Translations under genes and position numbers: made by a program
In this document: piece by piece, positions 10,970-51,162 of the stretch
How positions within the stretch are numbered: position 1 is the first letter of the stretch
Layout: every line of letters starts with the position of its first letter
DNA from: an uncultured bacterium
GTDB lineage: Bacteria; Patescibacteriota; Minisyncoccia; Phycocordibacterales; UBA9973
Reading direction: 5' to 3'
Assembly (NCBI GenBank): GCA_903894565.1
Contig: CAITQP010000009.1
Coordinates: 8,576-72,575, forward strand
DNA length: 64,000 nt
Notes under the pieces: generated by a model
Database searches by the model: none
Seen by the model: the letters and a program-made list of their open reading frames with translations, nothing else
Told to the model about the DNA's origin: nothing

Positions 10970-11806
10970 CTACTCCTCGATGTGAGTTCTCACGAGTGAG
11001 TACAAACAAGCCTCAATACCAAAAGCCTGCCCAATATCGTGCGCAAATTGTCGAACATAAAATCCGCTCGAAACAGTAAGCTCAACTTTGACCGTGAGTA
11101 ACTCATCAGGTAGGTCTCGGGCACACTGTGTCCACGTCTCAAGAATTTCGGCTTGACGAAAATCACCCTGAACAATACTCGTGAGTTTTTGGACTCGATC
11201 AAGTACTTCAGCTCGAGTGCGTGAGCCGACCGTGAGGTCGGTGTATGAAATGAGCTCCACATCATGTTTCGGCAAAAGAACCTCATTCCCCGCCCGCGCA
11301 TGCGTATGAAGCTGAATACCATCTACCGTCTTTGAAGAATATGCTGGATACTGTTGTTGGAATTTACCGATCATTTTTTTAAGAAATGCTTCAACGTGCG
11401 CAGAAATTTCCAAACATTCTTTTGAAAAGGCAACTCGTCGCGCGTGCTCGCGCGCGAGCTTCTCGGCGCCAAGCGCCTGCGAAAGGCCTTCTTCAAAAGA
11501 ATGTTTGGAAATTTCTGCGCAGGTAGAAGGAATACCCAACAAATCATATGTATCAGTTGATACACTAAAAATAATTTCGGCTACATACGTTTTAGAGAGT
11601 CCGCTGTAAGCGTCTTTGTTTTTACATTCCTCACCCACGAGGATAATCAGTTCACCTTCCGCGGCTGGGTCAAGTCGCCCCGCATACGTCATCGGAACAC
11701 TCGCATCAATCCCTTCGCTCGCGCGGAGTCGCTCCAAACAAACAAGCGGGGTTTCTCCCCACTCTTTGTATACGCGATATACGTTTTTTATACCTTCGCT
11801 TGCCAC
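10970..11806 (-). CDS. truB: tRNA pseudouridine(55) synthase TruB carrying an in-frame 41-aa insertion encoded by a palindromic repeat element
   Basis: MTYAGRLDPAAEGELIILVGE...KTYVAEI.FSVSTDTYDLLG and MIGKFQQQYPAYSSKTVDGIQLH match the TruB GxLDP and GxIxQxPPxYSAxK motifs. The frame is continuous through the 123-bp repeat at 11398-11520. Confidence 0.7.
   Translation of the reverse strand: MASEGIKNVYRVYKEWGETPLVCLERLRASEGIDASVPMTYAGRLDPAAEGELIILVGEECKNKDAYSGLSKTYVAEIIFSVSTDTYDLLGIPSTCAEISKHSFEEGLSQALGAEKLAREHARRVAFSKECLEISAHVEAFLKKMIGKFQQQYPAYSSKTVDGIQLHTHARAGNEVLLPKHDVELISYTDLTVGSRTRAEVLDRVQKLTSIVQGDFRQAEILETWTQCARDLPDELLTVKVELTVSSGFYVRQFAHDIGQAFGIEACLYSLVRTHIEE
11398..11520. repeat. structured repeat element, family 1, copy 1 (inside the truB coding sequence, in frame)
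   Basis: 80-bp core ttttgaaaaggcaactcgtcgcgcgtgctcgcgcgcgagcttctcggcgccaagcgcctgcgaaaggccttcttcaaaag is flanked by a perfect 22-bp inverted repeat gcgcagaaatttccaaacattc / gaatgtttggaaatttctgcgc. Length 123 = 41 codons. Confidence 0.7.
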
Positions 11807-12366
11807 GCCGTGTACGCCTCCAGAATCATTTGCTCAACTGTCGGAATATCATTCACTTTTGTATCAATCACCAAATCAAAATGGCTCGGGTCCTGGTAAT
11901 TTTCAATGGCGTAATATTTGTTGTAACGTTCTTTCTCACTCGCAAGTCGCTCAGAAAGTCGTGTCTTCACGTCGATGAGTGTCTCTGACATTTCCTCCTT
12001 GCGTTCAGATTTCTTGGCTTGAATATCGCCGAACACACGAGCACCCGCCGTATCCAAATCAAGATTCAAAAATACTTTGAATGAATCAGGTGCGAAAAAC
12101 CATCCAATACGTGAATCAATCACAAAATTGTTATTGCTATCCATGAAGGCTTTTTGCTTGGCATCGATTTCACGATCAACCGCTGGGTCATTTTCTGCAA
12201 GGAGGTTGAGTTCAACGATAGTCAGCCCACGCTCACTCGCCATCGCACGCATGAAGTCCCCAGCCGAGTAGTGCGGATAGCCGAGCGCTGTGGCCACACG
12301 CTTGGCAGCGGTTGATTTGCCTGAACCGAGCATGCCACAGATGGTGATGATGTTGCGCTTTTGCAT
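11788..12366 (-). CDS. cmk: cytidylate kinase-like nucleoside monophosphate kinase (P-loop)
   Basis: ITICGMLGSGKST Walker A and overall CMP-kinase-like layout. Start chosen at MQKRNIITICG. Confidence 0.5.
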   Translation of the reverse strand: MQKRNIITICGMLGSGKSTAAKRVATALGYPHYSAGDFMRAMASERGLTIVELNLLAENDPAVDREIDAKQKAFMDSNNNFVIDSRIGWFFAPDSFKVFLNLDLDTAGARVFGDIQAKKSERKEEMSETLIDVKTRLSERLASEKERYNKYYAIENYQDPSHFDLVIDTKVNDIPTVEQMILEAYTAWQAKV

Positions 12367-12446
12367 AGGCGAAGAATAGCACGACTCGAGCAAAATAAAA
12401 AATAACCACCCAATCCTGAGTAGTTATTTTCTATTATTATTTATAT

Positions 12447-13013
12447 TTAATCTACGGAGAGACTGTTCTCAGTAGCAAATAGCTGTAGTTGGAAAAGGCC
12501 AACTTCCTCAATACCAAACCTGACAAAGATATCGAGCAGCAGTAGTAACTGTTGGCAATATTTTCGTTCTTTAGGGTCCTTTTTGGTCTCTTTCTCAGCC
12601 ACAATCTTTGAACGAATGATCTCACCCTCCTCGACAATCCATTTTTTAAAGTTATCTTCAATTTTTTTCACATACCAATCAACCAACTGTTGATTGGGCT
12701 TAAGTGACCTTTTCAGCATCACTATTTTATGGGGATAAAATCCCCCGAGGTCCATCTCCCTTTTTATCGTCAAGAATAGAACGAAGACAAACTCGTCTAT
12801 TGACCTTTTTTGCAGTAGGGTCAATTTCTTTTTGCAAAAAAGGTACTCCGCGAATATCTCGCGGTTTATTGATGTTAGCCAGGTAATCCTTTTGTGTAAA
12901 CCTGGAAGACCAATCCCTAGGTCCTGCTTCTCAAACAGATACCTTTGAAAAAAATACCGAGCCAAAAAAAATACGGCGGGTAGAACTAAGAAAATCAATG
13001 CTAGTTTGCTCAT
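12447..13013 (-). CDS. hypothetical membrane-anchored protein (AT-rich)
   Basis: ORF track entry. Start chosen at MSKLALIFLVLPAVFF, an N-terminal TM segment. Composition clearly lower GC than the ribosomal neighbours. Confidence 0.45.
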   Translation of the reverse strand: MSKLALIFLVLPAVFFLARYFFQRYLFEKQDLGIGLPGLHKRITWLTSINREIFAEYLFCKKKLTLLQKRSIDEFVFVLFLTIKREMDLGGFYPHKIVMLKRSLKPNQQLVDWYVKKIEDNFKKWIVEEGEIIRSKIVAEKETKKDPKERKYCQQLLLLLDIFVRFGIEEVGLFQLQLFATENSLSVD

Positions 13014-13121
13014 GTGAACAATTGTTTTGTTGTGTGAAATTTTATTTACACTACAACATATCCACATATATAACAAGAGCCACACGTGAGTGTGGCTCTT
13101 GTTATATACTATGAAAATTGA

Positions 13122-13682
13122 TTATTTCTTCTTCTTTACATCCTCTTCCTTTTTGAAAGGAACACCGATGAGTTCGAAGAATGCGAGACCTTCTGCCTTT
13201 GTCTTTGCACTCGAGACGATTGTGACAGAGAGACCGAAGACATCCTTGATATCTTCATCTGCAGTTTCAGGGAAGATTGTGTGTTCCTTGATACCGAGTG
13301 TGAGGTTACCGATCGAGTCAACAGCTGAAGGATTGAATCCACGGAAGTCCTTCGTGCGAGGGACTGCAATGTTGAAAAACTTTTCAAGAAATCCGTACAT
13401 GCGAGGACCGCGGAGTGTTACAGAAACACCGACTGGGTCGCCCTGACGAATCTTGAATGTTGCGATTGATTGCTTTGCACCACGGAGTGCAGTCTTCTGT
13501 CCGGTGATCTTGGTCAAACGGTCAGCAACGAGATCGTTGTGATTCTTGTTACGCTTCATTGCGTTTCCAGTTCCGGAACCAACAACAACCTTCTGGAGCT
13601 TTGGAGCTCCCATGACGTTCTTGTAGCCAAACTTTGGCTTCAAAACTTCGTATGATTTTTGTGCTTTTTCTTTTACAGTCAT
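13122..13682 (-). CDS. rplE: 50S ribosomal protein L5
   Basis: MTVKEKAQKSYEVLKPKF start and L5 signature regions. Trimmed from ORF 13122..13745. Confidence 0.9.
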   Translation of the reverse strand: MTVKEKAQKSYEVLKPKFGYKNVMGAPKLQKVVVGSGTGNAMKRNKNHNDLVADRLTKITGQKTALRGAKQSIATFKIRQGDPVGVSVTLRGPRMYGFLEKFFNIAVPRTKDFRGFNPSAVDSIGNLTLGIKEHTIFPETADEDIKDVFGLSVTIVSSAKTKAEGLAFFELIGVPFKKEEDVKKKK

Positions 13683-13683
13683 A

Positions 13684-13989
13684 TTATACTTCCTGTCCGC
13701 TCTTCTTAGCGATGCGGATCTTCTTTCCATTAACATCCTGAGCACCCAAACGAGTTGGCTTGCCGGACTTTGGATCGAGGATCGCGACGTTTGAGCGATT
13801 TACTGGGTGAGCAATGTCCACCATCTGTCCCTTACCACCACGGGTAGTACTCTTCTGGTGACGCTTCTTCATGTTGAGACCCTCGACGAGAACTTTGTTC
13901 TCCTTTGGGAATACTGCGAGGATTTTGCCTTTTTTACCAGCATCCTTGCCTTTTGTGACTATTACGTTGTCTCCTTTTTTGATATTCAT
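13684..13989 (-). CDS. rplX: 50S ribosomal protein L24
   Basis: MNIKKGDNVIVTKGKDAGKKGKI KOW motif. Confidence 0.9.
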   Translation of the reverse strand: MNIKKGDNVIVTKGKDAGKKGKILAVFPKENKVLVEGLNMKKRHQKSTTRGGKGQMVDIAHPVNRSNVAILDPKSGKPTRLGAQDVNGKKIRIAKKSGQEV

Positions 13990-14012
13990 ATAATTGAAAG
14001 GTAGATTAATCG

Positions 14013-14390
14013 TTAGATAACCTCAGGGGCAAGAGAAATAATCTTCTGGTATCCGCGCTCTCCGAGCTCGCGTGGAATTGGTCCGAAAATGCGTCCAGCA
14101 ATTGGCTCGAAGCGCTGCTTTCCAGAACCGATGAGCACAACTGCGTTGTCATCAAAACTGATGTATGAACCATCTTTGCGGCGCATAGCTTCGCGCTGAC
14201 GGACAACAACTGCGTGGTGAACACCCTTCTTTTTGACACCCTTGCGAGGTTCAGCCACTTTGACCGAAATCACAACGACATCGCCGATGCGTGCGTAGCG
14301 ACGCTTGGATGAACCAAGCACCTTGAAGACCATGCCGACTTTTCCTCCGGCGTTGTCTGCTATTTTGACTATTGTTTGTGGCTGAATCAT
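14013..14390 (-). CDS. rplN: 50S ribosomal protein L14
   Basis: MIQPQTIVKIADNAGGK start, 125 aa. Confidence 0.95.
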   Translation of the reverse strand: MIQPQTIVKIADNAGGKVGMVFKVLGSSKRRYARIGDVVVISVKVAEPRKGVKKKGVHHAVVVRQREAMRRKDGSYISFDDNAVVLIGSGKQRFEPIAGRIFGPIPRELGERGYQKIISLAPEVI

Positions 14391-14413
14391 ATAATGTGTG
14401 TTACCTAAAACTA

Positions 14414-14674: not shown

Positions 14675-14682
14675 AAAAATAC

Positions 14683-15102: not shown

Positions 15103-15122
15103 AAATGTATCGTTAAATTAGA

Positions 15123-15815: not shown

Positions 15816-15818
15816 ATA

Positions 15819-16241: not shown

Positions 16242-16254
16242 AAGAGTTTAGATA

Positions 16255-16602: not shown

Positions 16603-16749
16603 ACAGTAATTAAAATAGCTCCGAGGAGCCGTGTCCAGACATACTAGCAAAAACGCGGAGATTGTCAAATCCCCTGATTCTTTTATTCCCTTATTTGACG
16701 AAACGACTATTTTGTATTAAAGTTTCGTCAACCAAAAATTTAAAATCTA

Positions 16750-24179: not shown

Positions 24180-24341
24180 AATGAATATATCAATATTGCT
24201 ATAGTGCTGTCAATGAGCTTTATTAAGATTTACGATACCAAATCCGATATCAATTCTATGCAAAGAAATTGTCGAGGAATAGCAAAAGGCGCGCCCTCCG
24301 GGCGCGCCTTTTGCTTCTTTCATTTGTTTGTCGTCCGAACC

Positions 24342-27561: not shown

Positions 27562-27677
27562 GTAGTGATTAAAATAAAAAGCTAGGCTACACCCAGAAGC
27601 AACTCGAACAATATCTAGGGGGAACTCGCTTAGGTCAGTACTATACATAGACTCTCGAGAAAATGCAAGAGGGAGGC

Positions 27678-27796
27678 GGGAAAACCACAAAATGCCCTTG
27701 TGAAAGTATCCGCGGAGCGCGACGGCGCGAGCGTGAGGCGAAAATCCTTCAGGATTTTACGCTGGTACTTTCACAAGGGCATTTTGTGGTTTTCCC
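27678..27796. repeat. structured GC-rich repeat element, family 2, copy B, in the rpsL leader
   Basis: Perfect 31-bp inverted repeat gggaaaaccacaaaatgcccttgtgaaagta / tactttcacaagggcattttgtggttttccc. It flanks the conserved core cggagcgcgacggcgcgagcgtgaggcga and the hairpin gcgaaaatcc-ttca-ggattttacgc. Confidence 0.65.
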
Positions 27797-27798
27797 GC

Positions 27799-29973
27799 CT
27801 ACACCTTGAATTTGCTCGACAAGTAGCCTTTTGAAACTGTGGCAGGCATGTCGGTGACCGCTGTTTGGTAGGTGCCGTCGGGCATTTTGCGATCAATGCG
27901 AATCTTGTAGTCGGCGTTTGGAAGGAGTGCGTAGTATCTTCCTTGCGCGTCGGCGATACGGTGCATGACTTCAACACCCGTTGAAACAGATGCTATACGA
28001 ATAAGCGCAAATGAAAGTGGTAAACCTGTTTTCGCATCCGTAATATCTCCATATGGTCGTGAATGTTTGCCGTATTGTCGGAGGAAGAAAAGTCCAACAT
28101 ACAAAACAAGCACAATAATGTTATATGGCTTCGGCGCAAAGACTGTTGCGAGCATTGCGATAACAAATCCCGTGCCGAAAAGCACGTCAGATACTCGACG
28201 AAAGATTTTGCCGCGACGGGAATAGAACTTCATGAGGTTCTGCTGATTTTTTGCAAATTCATTCCAATCGAAATTCATTGGATCCATTGGAATATTTTTG
28301 ATCACAACATCCCCCGCGTTCTCAACAGTGAAGTGTTCACCGAAATACAAGTCACGGTAGAGTTCGTCATGGTCACGTCCGACGAGCTGTTGTGATGGGA
28401 AAAGATAATTCGTTTTTTGAGCAAAGATTGAGTACACACCTGGCTTTGGCACAACGAATCCGAATCGTCCATCAAGGTCGGTCAAATTGGAAACAACATC
28501 TTCTCCTTCAATAGTTCGAAGTGTTACATATGCAGGATCAAGTGGTTGCTTTGTAATACTGTCATAGACAGTACCCCACGGCTGATGACGTTTGCGCAAA
28601 CCAAGTGCGGCAAGAAGAAGCGACCACAAACGAGCTGGGATCAAGAAAATTTCAGAGAATGAAAGTGGATTCAAAAAGAGTGCCGTGAAAATTGAGGTGG
28701 CAGCACTTGCGACTACTCCGACTGTCGCTACAACAGCTTCGGCTTTTGTCGCAGTACCTGTTCCGAGAATTGCTTTTATTTTTTTGTACGTCGTGCCAAC
28801 CGTCTGCGTCGTATTACAGTAACTATTTTTTACTTGCCCAATAACTTCTCCGACGATGTCAGTTGCAGTAGAAATCGGACAACCACCACCACTTCCAGTT
28901 GTTGTCGTCGTATGAACAATTGCGTAGACACACGTTCCTGATTGACGAAAATTGCTTGCCGTTGGGTCGGTACACTGTGTGCTTGCATAGGTGCAAGGAA
29001 AAGCGCCGAGATAATTGCTCGCGGTTGCATCAAGACACAGTGGTGGTGGTGCATAGGTACACGCACCAGTCGCTCCATAGTTTGTAGCTGCTGTATCAGT
29101 ACACGTTGTTGCGTACGAACACGGCAATGCTCCGCCATAGTTTGTAGCTGAACGATCCCGACACAATAATGCATACGTACAAGCACCCGAAGCACCGTAG
29201 TTTGTCGCCGTTGTATCAGTACAAATACGCGGATAGACACATGATCCAATTGCGCCATAATTTGTTGCAGTTGTATCAGTACACGTCAGAGTATAGGTAC
29301 ATGGTAATGATCCACCAAAATTCGTCGCCGTTCGGTCCTGACACAATAATGCGTAAGTACAAATACCAGCCGAACCATAATTGGTAGCGGTCGTGTCGGT
29401 ACAGAGTGTTGGATACACACACGGCAATGATCCTCCGTAGTTGAGCGCAGTTCGATCGAGACAAATGAGTGGAGGAGGCGGAGTTGTGTGTGTCGTGACA
29501 ACAACAGTTGGGCGCCAATCAGTCTTCACACAGGCGTCAGTCTTCGTACAATCAAACAGCATCCAACCTCCACCGGACACCCATGCATATCCAGAAAATT
29601 CTCCAGTGCTTGGGTTGATTGTGACTCCTCCGTGCGTAGGGTTGAAGTTCACCCAACTCGCGGTCGAGCCCCACGCATCTCCCGTAACTGTACCGCTCGT
29701 TGTGTTGTGCACTCCCCCGCTTACTGGCGCAAGATTAATCCAACCCAATTTGTTTGACCAGATATATCCGAAAAGCGTGGTGTCACTCACCGAAACTCCT
29801 CCACCATTTGTAGGTTTCCAATTGACGATTGAATACGCCGAGCAGTCTTCATTCGAACACAATCGAGCCGTGTGACTCGTCGCGTCTATTCCTCCCGTCG
29901 AAGCAAAAAGTGCGACCGGAATGAGAAATCCGATAACACTCGCAATCAGAATGAAAAGACGTGAGAGACGCAT
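27799..29973 (-). CDS. large membrane/surface protein with nine 20-aa Cys-containing tandem repeats and C-terminal TM/beta-sandwich-like region
   Basis: 724 aa. N-terminal signal/TM. GY(I/A)W..GW(I/V).F(N) repeats. 9x C.D.TATNYG....C.Y... repeats. Several TM helices later in the sequence. Confidence 0.6.
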   Translation of the reverse strand: MRLSRLFILIASVIGFLIPVALFASTGGIDATSHTARLCSNEDCSAYSIVNWKPTNGGGVSVSDTTLFGYIWSNKLGWINLAPVSGGVHNTTSGTVTGDAWGSTASWVNFNPTHGGVTINPSTGEFSGYAWVSGGGWMLFDCTKTDACVKTDWRPTVVVTTHTTPPPPLICLDRTALNYGGSLPCVYPTLCTDTTATNYGSAGICTYALLCQDRTATNFGGSLPCTYTLTCTDTTATNYGAIGSCVYPRICTDTTATNYGASGACTYALLCRDRSATNYGGALPCSYATTCTDTAATNYGATGACTYAPPPLCLDATASNYLGAFPCTYASTQCTDPTASNFRQSGTCVYAIVHTTTTTGSGGGCPISTATDIVGEVIGQVKNSYCNTTQTVGTTYKKIKAILGTGTATKAEAVVATVGVVASAATSIFTALFLNPLSFSEIFLIPARLWSLLLAALGLRKRHQPWGTVYDSITKQPLDPAYVTLRTIEGEDVVSNLTDLDGRFGFVVPKPGVYSIFAQKTNYLFPSQQLVGRDHDELYRDLYFGEHFTVENAGDVVIKNIPMDPMNFDWNEFAKNQQNLMKFYSRRGKIFRRVSDVLFGTGFVIAMLATVFAPKPYNIIVLVLYVGLFFLRQYGKHSRPYGDITDAKTGLPLSFALIRIASVSTGVEVMHRIADAQGRYYALLPNADYKIRIDRKMPDGTYQTAVTDMPATVSKGYLSSKFKV
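28923..29478. repeat. 60-bp tandem coding repeats (about 9 units) encoding the Cys-x-D-x-T-A-T-N-Y-G repeat
   Basis: Periodic DNA similarity and periodic protein sequence CTDTTATNYG..G.CTY.. within the CDS. Confidence 0.6.
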
Positions 29974-31858: not shown

Positions 31859-32446
31859 ATGGATTACTTCACAGCAAAAACATTCGCTCTTCCCGAGCTC
31901 AAAGGAATCTCAGCCAAGAACGTCGAAGAGCATCTCAAGCTCTACGCTGGCTACGTAAAATTTTCGAATTATATCCAAAACCAAATTCGAGAATTGAGTA
32001 AAGATGCCGAAAAGAATTCGTATGAGATCGCCGAACTCCAGCGTCGCTTCGCCTTCGAACACGATGGAATGAAGAATCACGAGATCTATTTCTCACAATT
32101 TGAAGGTGGTCCTGCCTCACTCATGAGTAGTGGTGCGCTCGCTCAGCAAATCGAAAAAGATTTCGGTAGCTTCGATGCATTCCTCGCTCGATTGAAAGCG
32201 CTCGCAATGACACGCGGAGTCGGATGGGCAATGCTTTACTACTGCAGTGAATCAGGACACTTGCTCACGCAGTGGGTAGACGAGCAACACATGGGTCACC
32301 TTTCGGGACCAAAACTCATTCTCGCCATCGACATGTGGGAACACTCATATGTCTATGATTATCCGACGAGCGAAAAGAAAAAATACGTTGAGGCTTTTTT
32401 TGAGAATTTGAATTGGGGTAAAGTTGAAGAGCGATTCAGTAAATAA
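31859..32446 (+). CDS. sod: Fe/Mn-family superoxide dismutase
   Basis: AIDMWEHSYV (D/H ligands), NHEIYF and an N-terminal His. All four metal-ligand positions look present. Confidence 0.75.
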   Translation: MDYFTAKTFALPELKGISAKNVEEHLKLYAGYVKFSNYIQNQIRELSKDAEKNSYEIAELQRRFAFEHDGMKNHEIYFSQFEGGPASLMSSGALAQQIEKDFGSFDAFLARLKALAMTRGVGWAMLYYCSESGHLLTQWVDEQHMGHLSGPKLILAIDMWEHSYVYDYPTSEKKKYVEAFFENLNWGKVEERFSK

Positions 32447-32460
32447 GGTTAGTAAAATTA

Positions 32461-32556
32461 AAAAACTCTTTTGAAAAGGCAACTCGTCGCGCGTGCTCGC
32501 GCGCGAGCTTCTCGGCGCCAAGCGCCTGCGAAAGGCCTTCTTCAAAAGAGTTTTTT
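32461..32556. repeat. structured repeat element, family 1, copy 2; doubles as bidirectional terminator between sod and comEC
   Basis: Identical 80-bp core to copy 1. Flanked by aaaaactcttttgaa / ttcaaaagagttttt, with T-runs on both strands. Confidence 0.7.
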
Positions 32557-34057
32557 AATTTTGCTCCACTTTTTCACTGTTCCATTTTCGATACAGCCAA
32601 TATATTAAACACACATATATAAATAAGCATAGCCATAGTGGAAAATGTTTAATGACAACTGAGGCGAATGGAACACGCGCGAAGAATTGTACGGCTCCTG
32701 TGATGTAGCTGAGGAGATAGTGTGTGATGAGCGAGGCGGGATATGCGAGTCCTAGACTGAATGCTCCGATGAGTCCCGCAAGTGCGCCGAAGCCCATGGC
32801 GAGTGGTACGGCAGGCAGGATTGCTACGTTTGCAGGAAGTGCGATGAGTGAGAGCGTGCCCATTTTGTAGAGGATGAACGGCAAGACTCCCGTTTGTGCG
32901 CCGAGGGTCACTGACATTAATTCGCGCAGTGGAATAATGTATGCGACTTTTTTGGGAACACGCGCGAATGCACGCTCGAGCACCGGAGTGACAAAGAGGA
33001 TACCGAGCGTAGCGAGGTATGAGAGTTGGAATGATACGTCGTAAACGAGATATTTTGGATCGTAGAGAATCATCAAAAATCCGGCGACGATGAGCGCGCG
33101 AAATGCATCGTACGTGCGACCCTTGGTCCGTGCAAAAAGTCCAATGAGTGCCATGATGCCCGCACGGATTGCCGATGATTGCATGCCTGTCATTACGACA
33201 AAGAGCACGATACAGAGCGCCCCACTCGCCGAAGCGACGCGCATAGAGAGACCAAGAATATCGACGAAAAAACTTTGCAGTGCGTTTGCGACAACTGTCA
33301 CGTTGTATCCCGAAAGTGCAATCATGTGAATCGTGCCAGTCGTGACGAGGTCGTCGCGAAATTGTGGATCAATGTTTGCTTTGACTCCGAGATTGAGACC
33401 GGCGAGAAGATCGGCTTGTGGTGCAGGCAAAATACGATGAAACGATTTTACAATTACATTTTTTACGGGAATCAAATGAGCGACAACCCAATTGCCATGA
33501 TTATGTTCGAGCACAGTCGCGCTCGCATTTTTGATTTGATACACAATGTTATTTTTATACAAATATGAAATGTAATCGAATTCAGTACCTTGATCGGTCA
33601 TGAAATTCTCGGGACGTGCGAGTGTGCCGTGCACAAGCACAGTATCGCCGTACGCGAGATTCATATTTGATTTCGTGCGAACAGAAAAACTGAGGCCGGG
33701 TGTTTCGAGCGTAAAACTATCTCCATATGATTTTGCCGACGGTTCGTCGACGATGAGTCCCTCGACCGTAACGCTTGTGCCGATATTATTTTCAAAATCT
33801 TTTGTATTTGGTTTAGCGATTTCTGCACGATATGCCCCGAGCACAAATGCACAGATGAAGAGACTCGCGAAGAGTGTGTATGATCTCGCCCTCTGGATGA
33901 AAGTGGCGATGATGAGGAGGCAAACGCCGACCGCCCCCGCGACGATAGTCGCGGGGGCGGTCATATGAGAAAGCGAAGCAAAAATAATTCCGGTGGCAAA
34001 GCCTACAATACCAGAAGCCAAATATACATCTATGTTTTGTGAGCGAGCGTGCTCCAT
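32555..34057 (-). CDS. comEC: ComEC/Rec2 family competence protein (membrane domain)
   Basis: 500 aa polytopic membrane protein. IHMIALSGYNVTVVA matches the competence-domain signature. Confidence 0.75.
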   Translation of the reverse strand: MEHARSQNIDVYLASGIVGFATGIIFASLSHMTAPATIVAGAVGVCLLIIATFIQRARSYTLFASLFICAFVLGAYRAEIAKPNTKDFENNIGTSVTVEGLIVDEPSAKSYGDSFTLETPGLSFSVRTKSNMNLAYGDTVLVHGTLARPENFMTDQGTEFDYISYLYKNNIVYQIKNASATVLEHNHGNWVVAHLIPVKNVIVKSFHRILPAPQADLLAGLNLGVKANIDPQFRDDLVTTGTIHMIALSGYNVTVVANALQSFFVDILGLSMRVASASGALCIVLFVVMTGMQSSAIRAGIMALIGLFARTKGRTYDAFRALIVAGFLMILYDPKYLVYDVSFQLSYLATLGILFVTPVLERAFARVPKKVAYIIPLRELMSVTLGAQTGVLPFILYKMGTLSLIALPANVAILPAVPLAMGFGALAGLIGAFSLGLAYPASLITHYLLSYITGAVQFFARVPFASVVIKHFPLWLCLFIYVCLIYWLYRKWNSEKVEQN

Positions 34058-37411: not shown

Positions 37412-37420
37412 TGAGTAATA

Positions 37421-37449
37421 AAAATGGCACAACAATTGTGCCATTTTTA
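37421..37449. terminator. bidirectional terminator hairpin
   Basis: aaaatggcacaacaattgtgccatttt. Confidence 0.55.
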
Positions 37450-37458
37450 TTACCTATT

Positions 37459-39352: not shown

Positions 39353-39424
39353 GGGTGGATTATAGCACGCCCGCGCGCGCACAAAAATGCACTCTACGCC
39401 AAATACTCGAGGCGCGCGGGCGTG

Positions 39425-40702
39425 CTAATTTGTCTCTTTCCAAAACAGAATTGTCGGCGGTGTGCTTGCCCCAGTTGAAAATACCGTTCCGAGAAGTGCC
39501 GAATCATATGTAACCGAGGAAGTATCAGCAAGATGCACGGCCTGCCCCGCCACAAAACTCGCTGAGGCAGTCCCATTGAGTACTGCCGTTCCTCCACGTG
39601 CATACACGATTGCAGAACCTGTTCCTCGATACAATACAGCACTGGTACTTGTACTATTTGAAAGGAGTAAAACATAGCTTCCCGGAGTCCCCGAACCGAC
39701 AATATGACTCGCACCTGAAGTTGTAATCGTACCATCGACAATAATCATTCCACTATTTGCTCCAAAACTTGAAGAGAGGTTGATGCTTCCTGCCCCTGTA
39801 ATCGTAAGATTCCCTGTCACCCAGAGAACACCCGAGAGCGTCAAATTCGCAGAATCTGGTATCGTCAGGTCGCCACTAATCTTTTTTGGGCCAAGCGTAA
39901 CTCCAGCCAAAGAAACACTGTAACTTCCAGAGATAACTCCCCCGCTCACAGCATCTGCTTCCCACCCCGAAATATCAGTACTCGTAATTGGAAGCTCTTC
40001 GTAGACAGGATCAGGATAAGTCGAACACGGACCAGAAGAACTCACCACGAGCGTACAGTAGAGTACCCCCGTCGCGTTCGTATAATCAACAGTATGTGCA
40101 TACACATTACCAACACCACCAACGCCCACATGAATCGGATGCGCAGCATCTTCTCCCGTAATCACCCCATACGTCCCCGACGATGAATTCGCAACAGTCG
40201 CAGTACCACCAATACTTACACCATCTTGTCCATGAACCTGCGCGTCTGCGTGAATATCACCCGTAACTGAGGATGAATCGGCCATGTCCAAACCTCCATC
40301 GTCAGTCATTACCGCGTAGCGAAGTGGGATTCCCGTGCCAACAATCGCACGCAATGTACTGGTACGTTCGTCTCCTAATGAGTTCCCAGTGCCGGCAATC
40401 TCCTCAACACCTCCACCCATATTTGTGATTGTTGTCGCAGCAGAAACATTGCCAATAAAAAATGAGGTGCTTGAACCAAGGTGCATTCCATTTTTAAGAC
40501 GATAATATGCATCCTCAACTCCAGATTCTCCTGCACTATAACTTTGACGTGAAGTAATTGCATCAAGTCCAATACGATACTCACGTGCCGCGGGAGCAGA
40601 CAATCCAAGCACGAGAAGTACCGAGGCGAGAATAAAGAAGATCACTGCGATCATCATCGCAGCTCCCCGTTCAGTATTTTGTTGGAATAATTGCATACTC
40701 AT
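39425..40702 (-). CDS. large membrane-anchored Gly/Ser/Thr-rich protein, likely pilus-associated
   Basis: 425 aa. N-terminal TM. Repetitive G/S/T-rich beta-rich sequence. First gene downstream of three pseudopilin genes. Confidence 0.45.
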   Translation of the reverse strand: MSMQLFQQNTERGAAMMIAVIFFILASVLLVLGLSAPAAREYRIGLDAITSRQSYSAGESGVEDAYYRLKNGMHLGSSTSFFIGNVSAATTITNMGGGVEEIAGTGNSLGDERTSTLRAIVGTGIPLRYAVMTDDGGLDMADSSSVTGDIHADAQVHGQDGVSIGGTATVANSSSGTYGVITGEDAAHPIHVGVGGVGNVYAHTVDYTNATGVLYCTLVVSSSGPCSTYPDPVYEELPITSTDISGWEADAVSGGVISGSYSVSLAGVTLGPKKISGDLTIPDSANLTLSGVLWVTGNLTITGAGSINLSSSFGANSGMIIVDGTITTSGASHIVGSGTPGSYVLLLSNSTSTSAVLYRGTGSAIVYARGGTAVLNGTASASFVAGQAVHLADTSSVTYDSALLGTVFSTGASTPPTILFWKETN

Positions 40703-45368: not shown

Positions 45369-45408
45369 AAAAAATAACCTGTCTCGAAATCGAGACAGGT
45401 TATTTTTT
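45369..45408 (-). terminator. rho-independent terminator downstream of the 440-aa secreted protein gene
   Basis: aaaaataacctgtctcgaaatcgagacaggttatttttt. Confidence 0.6.
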
Positions 45409-45427
45409 AAATGATTTATGTATTCAA

Positions 45428-46750: not shown

Positions 46751-46776
46751 TATATTAATTGATTAAATAATAAGGA

Positions 46777-48369: not shown

Positions 48370-48381
48370 ATTGTGTAGTGT

Positions 48382-48696
48382 TTATTGATTCGAAGCCTTT
48401 CCAATCGAATCGAGAATCGCCGCTCTGTCTGTCATGTTGGGAGCCGGAGTCTTTTTTTCGAGCGTCTTAAGAATATCCGTTTTTTGTTTGTCAGTAATAG
48501 AGCCTTGTACTGAATTATTGCCGATCTGGTCAATTACTGCCTTGTGTTCACTTTCAACAGTAGTAGCGGGTGAAGTAACACTTTTTTTTATGAAAACAAG
48601 ACCAACAGCAATAAGTGCTGCGACAACTATTATAATAAGAAGAACTTTTGGCTTTGCACGCGACGAACGAACTGATTGCTTCATTGGAGCATCCAT
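48382..48696 (-). CDS. small membrane-anchored hypothetical protein
   Basis: 104 aa, single TM after a basic N-terminus. Confidence 0.4.
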   Translation of the reverse strand: MDAPMKQSVRSSRAKPKVLLIIIVVAALIAVGLVFIKKSVTSPATTVESEHKAVIDQIGNNSVQGSITDKQKTDILKTLEKKTPAPNMTDRAAILDSIGKASNQ

Positions 48697-48759
48697 ATGT
48701 CACATATTGTACCATTTATAGTTCGGGTGGATAACAATCATCTGGCTGTGGAAAACCAA

Positions 48760-48791
48760 CAACCCCGCATTTGCGCGCAAATGCGGGGTTG
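48760..48791. promoter_or_regulatory. 32-bp perfect palindrome overlapping the -35 of the candidate nusA promoter (putative operator)
   Basis: caaccccgcatttgcgcgcaaatgcggggttg equals its own reverse complement. Lies in the divergent region between 48382..48696(-) and nusA(+). Confidence 0.5.
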
Positions 48792-48817
48792 ACACGTTTT
48801 GCCGAGCAGAGTACTAT
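48789..48817 (+). promoter_or_regulatory. sigma70-like promoter (TTGACA-17-TACTAT)
   Basis: ttgaca at 48789-48794, 17-nt spacer, tactat at 48812-48817. Confidence 0.4.
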
Positions 48818-48848
48818 ATATATGTTACTAGATAAGGTGTTTAGGTAT

Positions 48849-48878
48849 GTCGGCCATCGGGCCGGCTCTTTTTTTTAA
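48849..48878 (+). terminator. terminator/attenuator hairpin plus 8-T run in the nusA leader (possible ~55-nt leader RNA or sRNA)
   Basis: gtcggcc-atcg-ggccggc followed by tcttttttttaaaa, about 30 nt downstream of the predicted TSS and 70 nt upstream of the nusA ATG. Confidence 0.4.
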
Positions 48879-48950
48879 AAGGACCCAAAAACCTCATCAA
48901 AAATTAGAAAATTTAATAACGAGCCTTGTAAAATAAGGCTAAAATCATAT

Positions 48951-50126
48951 ATGTTAGACCTAAAAGCACTCAAAATAGCCCTCGACCAACTCGAAACAGA
49001 GCGCCGAGTACCCCGCGAGAAGATCATCGATGCCATCGAACAGGCACTCGCCGCCGCTTACAAAAAAGACTACGGCAAGCGTGGGCAGATCGTTCGCGCC
49101 CATTTTGACCTTGAAACTGGCCGTACCGACTTCTTTCAGGTGAAAATCGTCGCCGACGAATCAACTGTTTACTTCGTAGAGGATGGTGTCGATACTCCAG
49201 ACCTCCCAGAAGGCGACGAGCGTGTTCGCTTCAATCCCGAGCACCACATTCTCCTTGAGGATGCACGCATCATGAAATCAAACGCTGTTGTAGGCGAGGA
49301 AATCAACTTCCCCCTTGAAGCCAAAGAAGATTACGGCCGTATTGCAGCCCAAACAGCCAAGCAAGTCATCATTCAGCGCATCCGTGAGGCAGAACACGGT
49401 GCAATCATGAGCGAATTCGGCGGTCACGAAGGTGATATCGTCAGTGGAATGATTCAGAAGATGGAACGTGGCAATGTCTTCGTTGATATTGGTCGCGTTA
49501 CCGCTATTCTTCCTCGCGAAGAACAGATTCCAAACGAATACTATCGTCGTGGTGAGCGTATTCGCGCATACCTGTATGCTGTTGAAGAAACTCCTCGTGG
49601 CGTATCGCTCAAAATCTCACGTACACATCCAAAATTCATTACAGCGCTCTTCGCTCAAGAAGCTCCAGAAGTTGCAAGTGGCACCGTAGAAATAAAATCA
49701 ACTGCTCGTGAGGCAGGTGCTCGAACCAAGATTGCAGTTTTCTCAGCTGACGAACATGTTGATCCAGTTGGTTCATGTGTCGGACAGAAGGGTATCCGTG
49801 TAACAACTGTTATGAGTGAGCTCGGAAACGAAAAGATTGATATCATTGAATGGAATGCAGATCCAGCAAAGTTTGTTTCAGCTGCTCTCTCACCAGCAAA
49901 AGCGCTCTCAGTCGTCATCAATGACACTGAGCACACCGCGAGTGTTGAAGTCGCTGACGATCAACTTTCACTCGCAATAGGAAAGGGCGGACAGAACGTT
50001 CGTCTCGCCGCAAAACTCACTGGATGGAGAATCGATATCAAAGGAGTCGCCGGTGAAACAGTTGGATCATCAGATGGTGAAACAGTTGTAGAAAAGAAAG
50101 AGACAGTAGCCGAAGAGACTGCTTAA
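48951..50126 (+). CDS. nusA: transcription termination/antitermination factor NusA
   Basis: 391 aa with N-terminal domain, S1 and two KH regions. Close similarity to the E. coli NusA layout (AKQVIIQRIREAE.., PVGSCVGQKGIRV.., IGKGGQNVRLAAKLTGW). Confidence 0.9.
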   Translation: MLDLKALKIALDQLETERRVPREKIIDAIEQALAAAYKKDYGKRGQIVRAHFDLETGRTDFFQVKIVADESTVYFVEDGVDTPDLPEGDERVRFNPEHHILLEDARIMKSNAVVGEEINFPLEAKEDYGRIAAQTAKQVIIQRIREAEHGAIMSEFGGHEGDIVSGMIQKMERGNVFVDIGRVTAILPREEQIPNEYYRRGERIRAYLYAVEETPRGVSLKISRTHPKFITALFAQEAPEVASGTVEIKSTAREAGARTKIAVFSADEHVDPVGSCVGQKGIRVTTVMSELGNEKIDIIEWNADPAKFVSAALSPAKALSVVINDTEHTASVEVADDQLSLAIGKGGQNVRLAAKLTGWRIDIKGVAGETVGSSDGETVVEKKETVAEETA

Positions 50127-50143
50127 TCATATAATAGAAGCAT

Positions 50144-50728
50144 ATGGCAAACATCAATCACGAACCATCGAAGTACATGCTCAACTTGTTGCACGTACTC
50201 CCAGCCGTTGTCGATGAATCAAAGTGCATCATTAATGCAATCGTCGAAGTTTCTGCTGGATCTATCAACAAGTACGAACTCATCACCGAGAGTGGTCAGC
50301 TCAAGCTCGATCGTGTTGGATATTCTTCAATGGCATATCCATTCACATACGGAGCGATTCCAATGACATGGGATCAAGACAATGACCCGCTTGATGTTGA
50401 AGTTGTAAATGTAACTGAACCACTCGTGCCAGGATCTGTCGTTGAACTCCGTGTCATCGGTATCATGAAATATATTGATGGAGGTGAAGTCGATGACAAA
50501 ATCATCGCCGTCATCAGTGAAGACAAACGACAAGATCACATCACACATGTGGATCAGCTCGGAGAGTATTTCAAAAAACAAACACAGTACTACTGGGAAA
50601 ATTACAAAGCGCTCAAGAAACCTGGTACTGGCGTTGTCGAAACATTCCATGGACCAGAAGAAGCAATGAAGGTCATCAAAGAATGTGTTGATGTGTACGC
50701 AAAGAATTACGCTTCAAAGGTAAAATAG
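50144..50728 (+). CDS. ppa: inorganic pyrophosphatase, family I
   Basis: DPLDV motif and 194-aa length. Confidence 0.8.
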   Translation: MANINHEPSKYMLNLLHVLPAVVDESKCIINAIVEVSAGSINKYELITESGQLKLDRVGYSSMAYPFTYGAIPMTWDQDNDPLDVEVVNVTEPLVPGSVVELRVIGIMKYIDGGEVDDKIIAVISEDKRQDHITHVDQLGEYFKKQTQYYWENYKALKKPGTGVVETFHGPEEAMKVIKECVDVYAKNYASKVK

Positions 50729-50742
50729 TACTCAAGACTAAG

Positions 50743-50777
50743 AAAAAATCACGCCCCGAATCGGGGCGTGATTTTTT
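50743..50777 (+). terminator. rho-independent terminator after ppa
   Basis: aaaaaatcacgccccgaatcggggcgtgatttttt. Confidence 0.65.
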
Positions 50778-50814
50778 CTTTCATTTTTTGTAAAATTGTA
50801 TATACTCACACCAT

Positions 50815-51024
50815 ATGGAAAGAATGTCTCAAAAATCTATCCGAGAAAATGGTGGCGCTCTGGCCGGCATTGTCATTATCCTCGCTATCCTGATTATTGC
50901 AGGCTATTTCCTCTACCAAAATGTGCGCAAGCAAACTGATCTTATTCAAAACCACCAAGCAAAGACAGCTGCCGAAGCCGGCATCAACCTCGACGCAAAC
51001 GCGTCAGGGTCTCTCTCAAACTAA
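50815..51024 (+). CDS. small single-TM protein
   Basis: 69 aa, GALAGIVIILAILIIAGYFLY TM segment. Confidence 0.35.
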   Translation: MERMSQKSIRENGGALAGIVIILAILIIAGYFLYQNVRKQTDLIQNHQAKTAAEAGINLDANASGSLSN

Positions 51025-51029
51025 CAAGG

Positions 51030-51162
51030 CCGAGCAGGAACAAAAGCACACACCTCCTTTGAAGAAGGCCTTTCGCAGGCGCTTGGCGCCGAGAAGCCCG
51101 GCCGCGAGCACGCGGAACGGGTTGCCTTTTCAAAGGAGGTGTGTGTGCTTTTGTTCCTGCTC
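51030..51162. repeat. structured repeat element, family 1, copy 3 (reverse orientation) upstream of tig
   Basis: Core is the reverse complement of copies 1 and 2, with a few substitutions. Flanked by a perfect 34-bp inverted repeat ccgagcaggaacaaaagcacacacctcctttgaa / ttcaaaggaggtgtgtgcttttgttcctgctcgg. Confidence 0.7.

Follow-up and report, generated by a model that had tools for sequence, protein, structure and literature searches.

The window analyzed here, a 64,000-nucleotide stretch of bacterial DNA, carries three copies of a small palindromic element (family 1), located within truB, between sod and comEC, and upstream of tig. In every case, the core occupies the tip of a far longer hairpin, the outer stem of which differs from copy to copy, and the window holds two other families built on the same plan. 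The host is a tiny-genome, Patescibacteria-like bacterium. The features discussed below are as follows.

10970-11806, minus strand: truB (tRNA pseudouridine-55 synthase), host gene of copy 1; 278 aa, Pfam TruB_N, E=3e-21
11397-11419: copy 1 left arm, TGCGCAGAAATTTCCAAACATTC, within the truB coding sequence
11420-11499, plus strand: copy 1 core, variant A; the 80-mer is forward on the plus strand and antisense to truB
11499-11521: copy 1 right arm, GAATGTTTGGAAATTTCTGCGCA
32454-32468: copy 2 left arm, AAAATTAAAAAACTC, beginning 7 nt past the sod stop codon
32469-32548, plus strand: copy 2 core, variant A, identical to that of copy 1
32548-32562: copy 2 right arm, GAGTTTTTTAATTTT, holding the last two codons and TAA stop of comEC (minus strand)
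51030-51057: copy 3 left arm, 28 nt, beginning 5 nt past the stop of a 69-aa ORF (50815-51024)
51058-51134, minus strand: copy 3 core, variant B', ~92% identical to copies 1 and 2
51135-51164: copy 3 right arm, 30 nt, slipped by 2 nt (GT) against the left arm; then TTTTTGTGTTAGTAT and the tig start at 51189
6304-6444: family 2 copy a, copy-specific stem of ~43 nt; of its two sub-hairpins, one has a TTCG loop
27655-27819: family 2 copy b, arms of 60 nt, 88% complementary, between a 724-aa gene and rpsL
1528-1686: family 3 copy, between a convergent 153-aa ORF and map; core inverted relative to the ELA106 orthologue
52233-52240: empty family-1 site, a mini-hairpin (ATAG-AAA-CTAT) just past the tig stop
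48760-48791: plain perfect terminator palindrome, CAACCCCGCATTTGCG/CGCAAATGCGGGGTTG, an empty family-3 site

Anatomy and fold of the elements

The initial annotation described an 80-nt core identical at two sites, and there is indeed no mismatch between 11420-11499 and 32469-32548, although copy 2 had been placed one base off. No 80-nt core match between copies is expected in shuffles. The third copy, described as reversed and carrying substitutions, is confirmed at 51058-51134, with about 92% identity. Most of its differences from variant A are compensatory changes in sub-hairpin 1, and it shares the 24-mer GGCGCCAAGCGCCTGCGAAAGGCC with the 80-nt core. Flanks of 22, 15, and 34 bp had been reported as perfect inverted repeats. 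They are copy-specific, as claimed, and those of copy 2 are perfect over 15 nt, but those of copy 1 form a perfect 23-nt complement (11397-11419/11499-11521), in which the final base of the core, G at 11499, is already paired with 11419, and those of copy 3 (28 and 30 nt) are imperfect, being offset by an AC/GT dinucleotide slip with a longest perfect block of 24 nt.

A stop codon lies within a few nucleotides of every intergenic copy. Copy 2 separates the convergent genes sod (stop 32444-32446) and comEC (stop 32555-32557, inside the right arm), and its position and A/T-tract arms make a role as a bidirectional terminator plausible. Copy 3 ends 24 nt before the start of tig. Family 2 copy a, the core of which differs in sequence from that of family 1, also lies between convergent genes, one of them secY.

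The conserved unit is a GC-rich core of 77-80 nt that folds as a long stem with two sub-hairpins. Its own short terminal inverted repeats (TTTGAAAAGGC ... GCCTT-CT-TCAAA) close a three-way junction bearing the sub-hairpins, and the inner pair TTTGAAAAGGC/GCCTTCTTCAAA is kept in nearly all copies. Three helices were compared across 14 copies taken from the window, metagenome contigs, and two related MAGs: pairing holds in 95.3% of pair cells and 28 of 44 pairs show double changes, a level of covariation reached in none of 500 shuffles, which bears out the earlier description of the sub-hairpins as conserved. The loops and junction strands (a TGCT loop, GAAAAGGCAAC, and CTGCG..AGGCCTTCT) remain constant while the stems covary. 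Folding z-scores lie between -7.6 and -11.7 on either strand, and the two kinds of mismatch are equally rare (G:T in 5 and A:C in 6 of 616 cells); there is therefore no strand-specific RNA signature. An Rfam search returned no family matching the element.

Distribution and variation among orthologues

The element is not limited to the three sites of the window. The only true matches in 596 Gb of genomes are in ELA106 (at least 7 copies) and Loclat_bin-19288 (2 copies), with further copies in four metagenomic truB orthologues. Sequence searches found none in JGI metagenome or viral collections, and none are present in ~50 kb from relatives with tig 76-83% identical. The family is rare, with a distribution confined to one clade; the data set comprises ~15 copies drawn from no more than five or six lineages, each represented by MAGs or metagenome contigs, and copy number is low, at about 10 per Mb.

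Copy 1 is in frame with truB: on the coding strand its core translates as SFEEGLSQALGAEKLAREHARRVAFSKE, and the insert corresponds to residues ~96-136 of the product. In alignment, this product carries 28-34 additional residues compared with TruB proteins of 55-60% identity, and residues 96-127 have pLDDT <50 in an AF2 model that is otherwise confidently folded. In our reading, the truB copy is a tolerated in-frame insertion in a disordered surface loop. The element is present at the same codon position, always in frame, in five truB orthologues (P0001-P0005), in either orientation: L001, L004, and L005 carry the core forward, and the window and L002 carry it in reverse. The reading frame stays open both ways, with two different peptides encoded. 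By protein comparison, the element is absent from more distant TruB proteins, and a six-frame peptide search of 5.8 billion proteins found the encoded peptide in none besides the truB product. L005 is a hybrid copy in which 73 nt of tig-upstream flank lie inside the truB element, one junction falling at a TTTTGA microhomology and the other within the core. In principle this may be an assembly chimera, but no long shared repeat lies at the first junction.

At three orthologous loci, the cores of the window and ELA106 are identical at 227 of 227 positions, compared with 85.8% identity in the adjacent 300-nt flanks (P ~1e-15); these include copy 2 (orthologue in L041) and copy 3 (orthologue in L018). 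Sequence-specific constraint acts on the core, independently of its orientation. The family-3 core is inverted between the window and ELA106 with collinear flanks, and relative to the upstream gene the intergenic core is reverse upstream of tig and in L083/L058 and forward downstream of tig in ELA106. Constraint that disregards orientation suggests that the core is probably read at the DNA level, or that its structure is recognized by a protein. A purely selfish repeat in decay would not be expected to stay perfectly conserved at orthologous loci, and this conservation argues for a constraint imposed by the host or by a protein.

The arms behave differently, in that those of orthologues differ only by paired, complementary changes. 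Examples are CATTC/GAATG versus CTCTC/GAGAG, AAGCACTCAGCAAATC versus AAGCACGTAGCGAATC (3 paired changes), AACTC versus ACCTC, and CACACC versus CGCGCC; L004 has the same truB arm as copy 1 with two paired changes. An ordinary terminator shows paired changes likewise. To judge from these paired changes, the arms are continuously re-homogenized.

In three comparisons of filled and empty sites (one target hairpin having a stem of only 4 bp), the elements seem to have entered hairpins already present, at the apex and just past stop codons, which lends some support to the earlier proposal that pre-existing palindromes are targeted. At the site corresponding to 52233-52240, the loop of the 4-bp mini-hairpin is occupied in ELA106 by a family-1 element of 133 nt (L018:226-358); it is the most diverged member of the family, its arms are imperfect, and the site is also empty in L087-L091. 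In ELA106, the exact position of the window's plain terminator palindrome (26 nt) is taken by a family-3 element (L018:~3795-3955), the outer arms of which show weak homology to the terminator, at about 8/13 positions per side. The arms of L033 consist of a known inner arm nested in a new outer palindrome. No pre-existing hairpin is demonstrable at the truB site. The alternative offered initially, duplication of an inverted flank, likewise has some support: the right outer arm of family 3 in the window is an inverted copy of native left-flank sequence that is one-sided in ELA106. Arms can travel with the core and are thus not simply made at insertion.

Origin and maintenance

The best explanation, to which we would give slightly better than an even chance, is that these small palindromic elements form a non-autonomous, REP/MITE-like family confined to one clade, and that DNA-level copying between arms keeps their stems perfect, extends them, and flips them. 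A center that is unusually conserved and can flip between relatives points to a repeat of the REP/MITE type and not to a classic transposon. The same label had been applied in the initial annotation, and it fits insofar as the elements are multi-copy, hairpin-forming, non-coding, and found at gene 3' ends; on the other hand, they lack the GTAG/CGTC tag that defines REPs, and direct target duplication is absent at every copy examined.

The arms would not be a target duplication made by a transposase. They may derive from the stems of pre-existing hairpins, typically terminators just past stop codons, with the core inserted at the apex; from inner arms carried along from a donor copy; or from one flank copied inverted onto the other side. 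Their perfect complementarity would be maintained by DNA-level copying, which could be replication template switching or recombination within the palindrome. Through such copying between arms, one mutation would become a paired change, and the asymmetric core could be inverted; a single template-switching event can generate perfect stems, change several bases in a compensatory manner, and invert loops (PMC8794818). Recombination or copy-choice between copies may give rise to new copies and replace cores, and the hybrid L005, one orthologue, is a direct case of copying between element copies. The intergenic copies probably serve as strong, often bidirectional, terminators or 3'-end hairpins; a simple terminator scan does not recognize multi-hairpin structures.

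An unlikely but credible alternative is a canonical transposase-driven MITE or REPIN-like element, with the enzyme encoded elsewhere in the genome and acting in trans. It would bind the core or the short inner repeats and insert preferentially into hairpin loops, which would suit the retention of TTTGAAAAGGC/GCCTTCTTCAAA, the apical position of the apparent insertion points, and the strong conservation of the core as a protein recognition site. That copies 1 and 2 share an identical 80-nt core between unrelated arms, and that the copy after tig was gained in ELA106 since its split from the window lineage, also fits, and insertion sequences that target REPs are documented in one report (PMC12288879). 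The gained copy is, however, the most diverged and has imperfect arms, which is odd for recent transposition from a resident master, and resident orthologous copies, which selection for transposability does not preserve, are identical at every position. Direct target duplications are missing, and the associated RAYT or IS200/605-like transposase suggested initially was not found: there is no transposase among the 26 window proteins scanned or in ORFs adjoining the ELA106 and Loclat copies, and no RAYT, IS200/605-like, or invertase gene in the window or adjoining the related copies.

Somewhat more doubtful is a host cis-acting structured module that is not mobile but inherited vertically at each locus, the arms being its covarying closing helix; it could act as a terminator, a 3'-UTR stabilizer RNA, or a site for a protein recognizing DNA or RNA junctions. 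Cores far more conserved than their flanks, stems that covary around constant loops and junction strands, the UUCG-type tetraloop of family 2, and the position of every intergenic copy right past a stop codon are all in keeping with this. Against it, the orientation of the core relative to the upstream gene is inconstant, with both forms at truB, neither strand has an excess of G:U, and Rfam holds no match. An identical core recurs in unrelated contexts, including inside a coding gene, and one copy was gained in ELA106 only. Furthermore, closing stems that are perfectly Watson-Crick over 15-34 bp, with eight paired changes at only ~10% divergence, would be hard to reach by stepwise selection.

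The flips themselves could be taken to indicate an inverton, in which the arms are invertase recombination sites and inversion of the core toggles a function, recoding a 28-aa loop in truB. Intragenic invertons have been described (PMC10028968), both orientations at truB keep the frame open with different peptides, and a second locus (family 3) is inverted between genomes 90% identical. We nevertheless regard this as very improbable: the arm sequence differs at every copy, so that the arms contain no common recombinase site, a search of the neighborhood found no invertase gene, disorder is predicted for the encoded loop, and flips are seen only between lineages, the independent assemblies compared for the same strain being identical.

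Finally, Logan unitigs break inside the element, indicating that assemblers struggle with it, but chance similarity, local duplication, or assembly artifact is effectively refuted by the presence of the same elements at orthologous loci in independently assembled MAGs and contigs. Such matches are also not expected in shuffles, the arms are shorter than typical final k-mers, and the flipped copies differ in sequence variant as well.

Comparison with known systems

The elements resemble REPs and REPINs in being small, GC-rich, palindromic, multi-copy, hairpin-forming, and non-coding, in lying at gene 3' ends between convergent or tandem genes, in their proposed roles in termination and mRNA stabilization, and as targets of other insertions. 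REPs are 20-40 nt long with a GTAG or CGTC tag (PMC3733652). REPINs, which are mobilized by RAYT, comprise two inverted REPs, so that their arms hold the repeated sequence. In the present elements, conservation resides in an asymmetric center of 77-80 nt, the arms are unique to each copy, there are about 10 copies per Mb, and no RAYT was seen. Bacterial MITEs (Correia/NEMIS, RUP, BOX, ERIC, and SPRITE) are likewise long intergenic hairpins of 100-150 nt including arms, and SPRITE can resemble terminators; occasional in-frame intragenic copies of MITEs are known (PMC10969869). Unlike the present elements, MITEs have family-wide terminal inverted repeats and direct target-site duplications, whereas here the copies have only the inner repeat of ~12 nt in common, each has long outer repeats of its own, and direct duplication is absent.

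The Rickettsia palindromic elements (RPEs) are inserted in frame in housekeeping genes and retained in orthologues, encoding fold-compatible peptides (PMC10969869). The truB copy is likewise an in-frame palindromic insertion kept across orthologues, but the sequences are unrelated and only this one gene is affected. To our knowledge, neither orientation flips nor co-evolving, copy-specific arms have been described for RPEs. As described by Mönttinen and Löytynoja (2022, PMC8794818), template switching that creates and maintains hairpins is a mutational process in RNA genes, as opposed to a family of repeats. It shares with the present elements perfect Watson-Crick stems, one-step compensatory changes, stem extension by inverted copying, and in-place loop inversion, although in our case it would operate on the stems that surround a conserved, mobile core.

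The inverted terminal repeat of parvoviruses such as AAV is a T-shaped hairpin with flip and flop forms; it is terminal, replicated by hairpin transfer, and nicked by the HUH endonuclease Rep. The elements described here are interstitial and chromosomal, with no Rep gene found, but share the long stem with two small internal palindromes and an asymmetric center that occurs in both orientations. IS1397 and ISKpn1 insert into REP loops. According to one report, ISPpu9, of the IS110 family, also targets REPs (PMC12288879). Whereas these are full insertion sequences with transposase genes, and the present elements are ~80-130 nt without coding capacity, the two have in common an apparent preference for the apex of an existing palindrome.

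Copies, distribution and gene context

Family 1 is built around a core of 77-80 nt that has TTTGAAAAGGCAAC at its 5' start and contains two sub-hairpins. The three copies in the window lie in truB, between sod and comEC, and upstream of tig, and their cores and inverted flanks (arms) are as follows.

Family-1 cores and arms in the window
11420-11499: copy 1 core, the same 80-mer as copy 2 with 0 mismatches
11397-11419 / 11499-11521: copy 1 arms, 23 nt, perfect
32469-32548: copy 2 core, the same 80-mer as copy 1 with 0 mismatches
32454-32468 / 32548-32562: copy 2 arms, 15 nt, perfect
51058-51134, minus strand: copy 3 core, ~92% identical, with the 24-mer GGCGCCAAGCGCCTGCGAAAGGCC in common
51030-51057 / 51135-51164: copy 3 arms, 28 vs 30 nt

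The initial annotation had described an identical core at two sites and a reversed one at a third, and this holds apart from a one-base offset in its coordinates for the second copy; dinucleotide-preserving shuffles give an expectation of 0 matches to the 80-mer. Its perfect flanks of 22, 15 and 34 bp need more revision: the 15-nt arms are perfect, those of copy 1 measure 23 nt, and copy 3 has no perfect 34-mer, its arms being unequal in length because of an AC/GT dinucleotide slip. The final G of the 80-mer is already paired with the base preceding its first T, hence the arm boundaries as measured. An inner repeat of ~12 nt (TTTGAAAAGGC/GCCTT-CT-TCAAA) is kept across copies. The long outer repeats (15-34 nt) are copy-specific, and the arms of different copies are unrelated, with the center alone in common.

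In 596 Gb of sequence, with each species represented by one genome, the 20-mer CTCGGCGCCAAGCGCCTGCG matched 78 loci, 70 of them chance matches in GC-rich genomes. True copies were found in two MAGs only, ELA106 (GCA_037143195.1), with six exact-seed copies and one diverged copy, and Loclat_bin-19288, with two; the family is thus not confined to the three window sites, as the initial annotation had allowed that it might be. Copy density is roughly ten per megabase. Families 1-3 (the latter two being sister repeats in the window) have no copy in ~50 kb of sequence from relatives with trigger factors 76-83% identical, and the small number of true copies together with their absence from these more distant relatives indicates a family that is young or limited to a narrow clade. 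The named best matches of the host's proteins are in Patescibacteria (Paceibacterota, Nomurabacteria). A gapped junction-strand pattern returned three chance matches in coding regions and no real one from JGI metagenome contigs, and 0 matches from viral contigs, leaving a phage origin without evidence. The regular ~21-kb spacing in the window was rejected as a sign of chromosome organization, the ELA106 copies being irregularly placed (~13.5, 80.3, 81.5, 99.5, 122 and 250 kb).

Look-ups of the window's tig and sod proteins for strain polymorphism yielded nothing beyond one assembly with 100% identity and unitigs that break off within the repeat. Logan unitigs of the window strain stop inside copy 3 (start of L093) and copy 2 (end of L094), so the repeats fragment this organism's assemblies. 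This has a practical side, in that such elements break assemblies and leave Patescibacteria MAGs with protein sequences that are spurious or altered.

Copy 2 lies between the convergent genes sod and comEC, and its right arm holds the comEC stop codon; copy 3 starts 5 nt past the stop codon of a 69-aa ORF, and 24 nt separate its far end from tig. A stop codon lies no more than a few nucleotides from every intergenic family-1 copy, and the copies fall between convergent or tandem genes (sod/comEC; the 69-aa ORF upstream of tig; tig/clpP; rhodanese-like; release-factor; gdhA; T2SSE-like ATPase), and the orientation of the core relative to the upstream gene is not constant. The elements are hairpins at gene 3' ends and probably act as terminators. 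Of the marks of an intrinsic terminator that works in both directions (a U-tract after the hairpin, an A-tract before it), copy 2 has A/T tracts within its arms and convergent genes on either side, copy 3 is followed by TTTTT, and copy 1 has neither feature. The consensus terminator scan does not score multi-hairpin stems. There is no tRNA gene in the window.

Two further observations concern sequences that adjoin the elements. In all relatives, the tig ATG is preceded at ~13 nt by a conserved TGTTA(G/A)TAT that resembles an extended -10 promoter element (51165-51188 and the tig loci L087-L091 of more distant relatives). At that distance, the leader of the tig mRNA would be very short or absent; the bases at the -35 position come, in the window, from the right arm of copy 3. 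At the ATPase gene, a conserved GC-rich stretch of ~190 nt adjoins the element on the side away from the gene (L083:~5570-5760 in ELA106; L058:~6780-6970 in Loclat_bin-19288). It looks structured, contains no long ORF and has no Rfam match at gathering score.

Fold, paired changes and related palindromes

On either strand one long stem runs via the core's own terminal repeat (the ~12-nt inner repeat) into a three-way junction bearing sub-hairpin 1 (CTCG-T-CGCGCG tgct CGCGCG-CGAG) and sub-hairpin 2 (TTC-t-C-GGCGC caa GCGCC-t-G-c-GAA), and folding z-scores range from -7.6 to -11.7. In an alignment of 14 distinct copies, standard pairs occupy 95.3% of pair cells vs 78.5% after shuffling, and both sides have changed in 28 of the 44 pairs, a result that shuffles and slid registers came nowhere near. 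Conservation of the internal sub-hairpins, as initially noted, is borne out by this covariation, which extends beyond the arms into the core itself: CTCG/CGAG is replaced by CCCG/CGGG, CTCC/GGAG and CCCC/GGGG; CGCGCG by CCGCG/CGCGG and CTGGCC/GGCCAG; TTC/GAA by TGC/GCA and CGC/GCG; and GGCGC/GCGCC by GGCCC/GGGCC. Among copies, no change is seen in the TGCT loop or in the junction strands.

The arms are perfect in every orthologue, and where orthologues differ they do so by complementary double changes. At truB, the window has ...AAACATTC/GAATGTTT... vs ...AAACTCTC/GAGAGTTT... in the orthologous locus L004, and ELA106 (L001) has AAGCACTCAGCAAATCTTC vs AAGCACGTAGCGAATCTTC in a further orthologue (L002), a difference at three positions that is mirrored in the opposite arm. 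The corresponding pairs are AAAAAACTC vs AAAAACCTC at sod/comEC and CACACACCTCC vs CACGCGCCTCC upstream of tig. Between genomes that differ by 10-14%, there are at least eight paired arm changes and very few unpaired ones, and several of the former are paired transversions, for which there is no wobble intermediate. These changes are unlikely to stem from stepwise compensatory selection; if one arm serves as the template for the other, a single step accounts for the pattern.

The same tendency is seen in the plain terminators of this genome, which are perfectly palindromic over 15-20 nt, A and T tracts included, and have loops of only 0-4 nt.

Plain terminators in the window
50740-50780: palindromic terminator
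48760-48791: palindromic terminator
45369-45408: palindromic terminator
13067-13108: palindromic terminator
37415-37453: palindromic terminator
24281-24315: palindromic terminator

The terminator after ppa likewise differs from that of ELA106 by a paired C:G to A:T change (GCCCC/GGGGC vs GCACC/GGTGC). These observations suggest a lineage-wide process that makes sequences palindromic at the DNA level. Replication template switching is known to yield stems without mismatches, compensatory changes of several bases at once, extended stems and inverted loops (PMC8794818).

Families 2 and 3 differ from family 1 in their cores and are alike in plan, each copy having its own long stem around a conserved center of several hairpins; their copies are all at gene ends.

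Sister families
6304-6444 and 27655-27819: family 2, arms of 43 and 60 nt, cores 78-81% identical
1528-1686 (window), L001:19139-19265 and L018:~3795-3955 (both ELA106): family 3, with a larger, AT-rich center

The family-2 plan is Y-shaped with a GC-rich center, and one sub-hairpin has a TTCG/TTCA loop and compensatory stem changes. The window also holds a single copy of an intergenic GC-rich hairpin (39363-39427) with perfect 16-nt arms (TAGCACGCCCGCGCGC) and a 33-nt center. A 14-nt inverted repeat in the RNase H gene (34361/34441) was set aside as due to chance. A tandem repeat of 60-nt period (29050-29463; at least five units, 61-70% identical) lies within the gene for a 724-aa CarboxypepD_reg-domain protein (27799-29973). 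Three paralogues (565-581 aa) at 55631-62721 have a treble-clef zinc finger at the C terminus and alternate with TrmB-like regulators, and DNA segments recur at 1750-nt and ~3.6-kb spacing.

Core constancy, the truB copy and the origin of the arms

Between the window and ELA106, the cores are identical at 79/79 positions at sod/comEC and at 79/79 upstream of tig, and the central 69 nt are identical at truB, where gene identity is 73% at the nucleotide level. Four adjacent 300-nt flanks are 85.8% identical, which gives P ~1e-15 for 0 changes in 227 nt; the absence of change is unexpected even when the count is restricted to unpaired core positions (~20 per copy). The locus-specific core variants are the same in both genomes (A at truB and sod/comEC, B' at tig), and because different variants are kept at different loci, simple homogenization within a genome does not explain the conservation. 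Full conservation of the core against 14% divergence of the flanks implies a sequence-specific reader in these minimal-genome organisms.

The core can also be found inverted in place. The family-3 element by map (1528-1686) matches ELA106 L001:19139-19265 in the forward direction and its flanking genes align in reverse; this disagreement places an inversion of the core between genomes that are ~90% identical.

The gene that holds copy 1 encodes a TruB_N protein (10970-11806, minus strand), and its reading frame runs on through the copy. The element occupies one position in all five of the closest TruB proteins (67-100% identity; four other assemblies), and TruB proteins at 55-60% identity have 28-34 residues fewer at the insert site. 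A six-frame peptide query of 5.8 billion proteins returned only these five, so in-frame capture is unique to truB. Relative to the gene, the core is reversed in the window and L002 and forward in L001, L004 and L005; both orientations are stop-free, giving different peptides (SFEEGLSQALGAEKLAREHARRVAFSKE vs SFEKATRRACSRASFSAPSACERPSSKE). An AlphaFold model of the window protein has a pLDDT of 82 and a pTM of 0.79, with pLDDT <50 for the insert (residues 96-127), which fits a predicted surface loop that is tolerated. Rickettsia palindromic elements offer a functional analogy only, being likewise in-frame, fold-tolerated insertions in conserved genes. The length of the truB loop differs by 18-24 residues among homologues, so that codon arithmetic is compatible with one, both or neither arm being native.

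Arm type and core variant occur in all four combinations at truB.

Core variant and orientation at truB
Window: A, reverse
L004: B, forward
L001: A, forward
L002: B, reverse

Together with the mosaic character of the TruB proteins around the insert, these combinations indicate that cores or whole segments have been exchanged. Comparison of the sequences suggests recombination centered on the truB element. The ends of the window TruB (10970-11806) are nearly identical to those of the homologue P0002 and the surroundings of its insert resemble P0003/P0004; nucleotide identity between the window and ELA106 is 73% at truB and ~91% in neighboring genes. One truB element (L005:1042-1959, encoding P0004) has 73 extra nt, in frame, adding 24 residues to TruB. 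The segment is identical at 64/73 positions to the reverse complement of the tig-upstream flank and its arm, and includes the reverse complement of the tig start codon. One of its junctions is at TTTTGA microhomology and the other is within the shared core, and such a hybrid is what would be expected if an ectopic copy had served in copy-choice or break repair. The first of these junctions is away from any long repeat, which makes an assembly chimera unlikely.

Filled and empty sites give some indication of where arms come from. Directly after the tig stop codon, ELA106 has a diverged family-1 element of 133 nt (L018:226-358) with imperfect arms of ~25 nt, and the site is empty in the window and five outgroups. 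Neither arm resembles local sequence, so the arms arrived with the core. Where empty, the site corresponds to the loop of a mini-hairpin with a 4-bp stem (ATAG-AAA-CTAT), and comparison of filled and empty tig-clpP sites revealed no direct target duplication; nor is there a direct repeat outside the arms at any copy. The ELA106 family-3 element at L018:~3795-3955 replaces the window terminator palindrome CCCCGCATTTGCG|CGCAAATGCGGGG (48763-48788), its outermost arms being weakly like the terminator stem and its junction being the stem center. Another ELA106 copy (L033) has the arms of window copy 2 (AAATTAAAAAACTC) as its inner arms, and a new outer palindrome, CCGGAC/GTCCGG. The right outer arm of the window family-3 copy, ACCAACCGAC, is an inverted copy of the native left flank GTCGGTTGG, a sequence that ELA106 has on one side only. 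One or two cases each suggest that insertion occurs at hairpin apexes, that inner arms are transferred with the core and that the palindrome is lengthened afterwards.

Proposed mechanism and relation to known repeats

The pattern is striking and internally consistent in a family that is tiny and drawn from MAGs only, and it is from this pattern that we infer a mechanism. We lean toward a composite process in which the core would enter hairpin apexes, or swap between copies via recombination or copy-choice; the arms would be taken from the target, brought by the donor or copied across; correction between arms would be continuous at the DNA level, with the same process flipping the center; and the core would be under a sequence-specific, orientation-independent constraint from some reader. 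A more novel proposal, which we put forward tentatively and think improbable as it stands, is that family 1 is either a Y-shaped DNA core invading apexes without a transposase, or the recognition site of a putative junction-binding protein of Patescibacteria. On the former reading, a sequence-constrained three-way-junction core would spread by break repair or replication template switching between copies, and replication-level copying would also build, perfect and flip the long stems. Either reading, if true, makes the center the conserved part and the palindromic arms a by-product, which to our knowledge turns round the arrangement in all MITE and REP families so far described.

The usual explanation of small palindromic repeats invokes a transposase with conserved ends as its recognition sites. 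In family 1, the ends vary and the center is conserved, the arms change in pairs, the center flips between close relatives, and one copy has stayed in frame in an essential-type gene, truB, through several speciation events. A conventional transposase acting in trans with a preference for hairpin loops, to which the post-tig site would be suited, is on present evidence unlikely. The 26 window proteins scanned with Pfam and the ORFs inspected beside the ELA106 and Loclat copies include no transposase, recombinase, invertase or HUH protein, no RAYT gene was among the ORFs scanned in the window and neighboring loci, and no longer element (parent IS) holding the core was found in any collection scanned. 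Vertical inheritance of a cis-acting RNA or DNA module would accommodate the covariation and the conservation of the cores; we hold it to be decidedly doubtful. An RNA-type signature is present on neither strand, since G:T wobble pairs are about as rare as A:C mismatches (5 vs 6 in 616 cells), and Rfam 15 gave no match at gathering score in the window and eight related loci. Matches below that score were to generic long hairpins, such as miRNA precursors, and are uninformative. An enzyme-driven inverton, brought to mind by the flipped centers, is very improbable: both orientations were seen between lineages only (truB; family 3 at map), and the independent assemblies of the window strain that were retrieved are identical, giving no sign of within-population switching. 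An artefact, with copies recurring in separate MAGs, hardly merits consideration.

If the arms are indeed kept by template switching, as the composite process would permit, family 1 would be an unusually clean natural example of how that process shapes bacterial hairpins and terminators. No description of such elements in Patescibacteria was found in the literature searched. They are best placed among the small palindromic repeats of REP/MITE type, and the label initially given to them survives in part: the hairpins at gene 3' ends agree with it, and the GTAG/CGTC tag, family-wide long terminal repeats and direct target duplication are all absent. REPs are imperfect palindromes of 20-40 nt with GTAG or CGTC at one end, whereas family 1 has a 77-80-nt core with no such tag at its ends. 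The repeated sequence of a REPIN is its arms, two inverted REPs around a spacer; in family 1, by contrast, the center is shared and the arms are unrelated. MITEs have conserved terminal inverted repeats and a direct target-site duplication, but family 1 has only the ~12-nt inner repeat and no duplication. The closest described phenomena differ with the property considered: capture in frame recalls RPEs, the terminator-like repeats recall SPRITE and REP, the perfect stems and flips recall hairpin evolution by template switching, and the two reading variants recall intragenic invertons.
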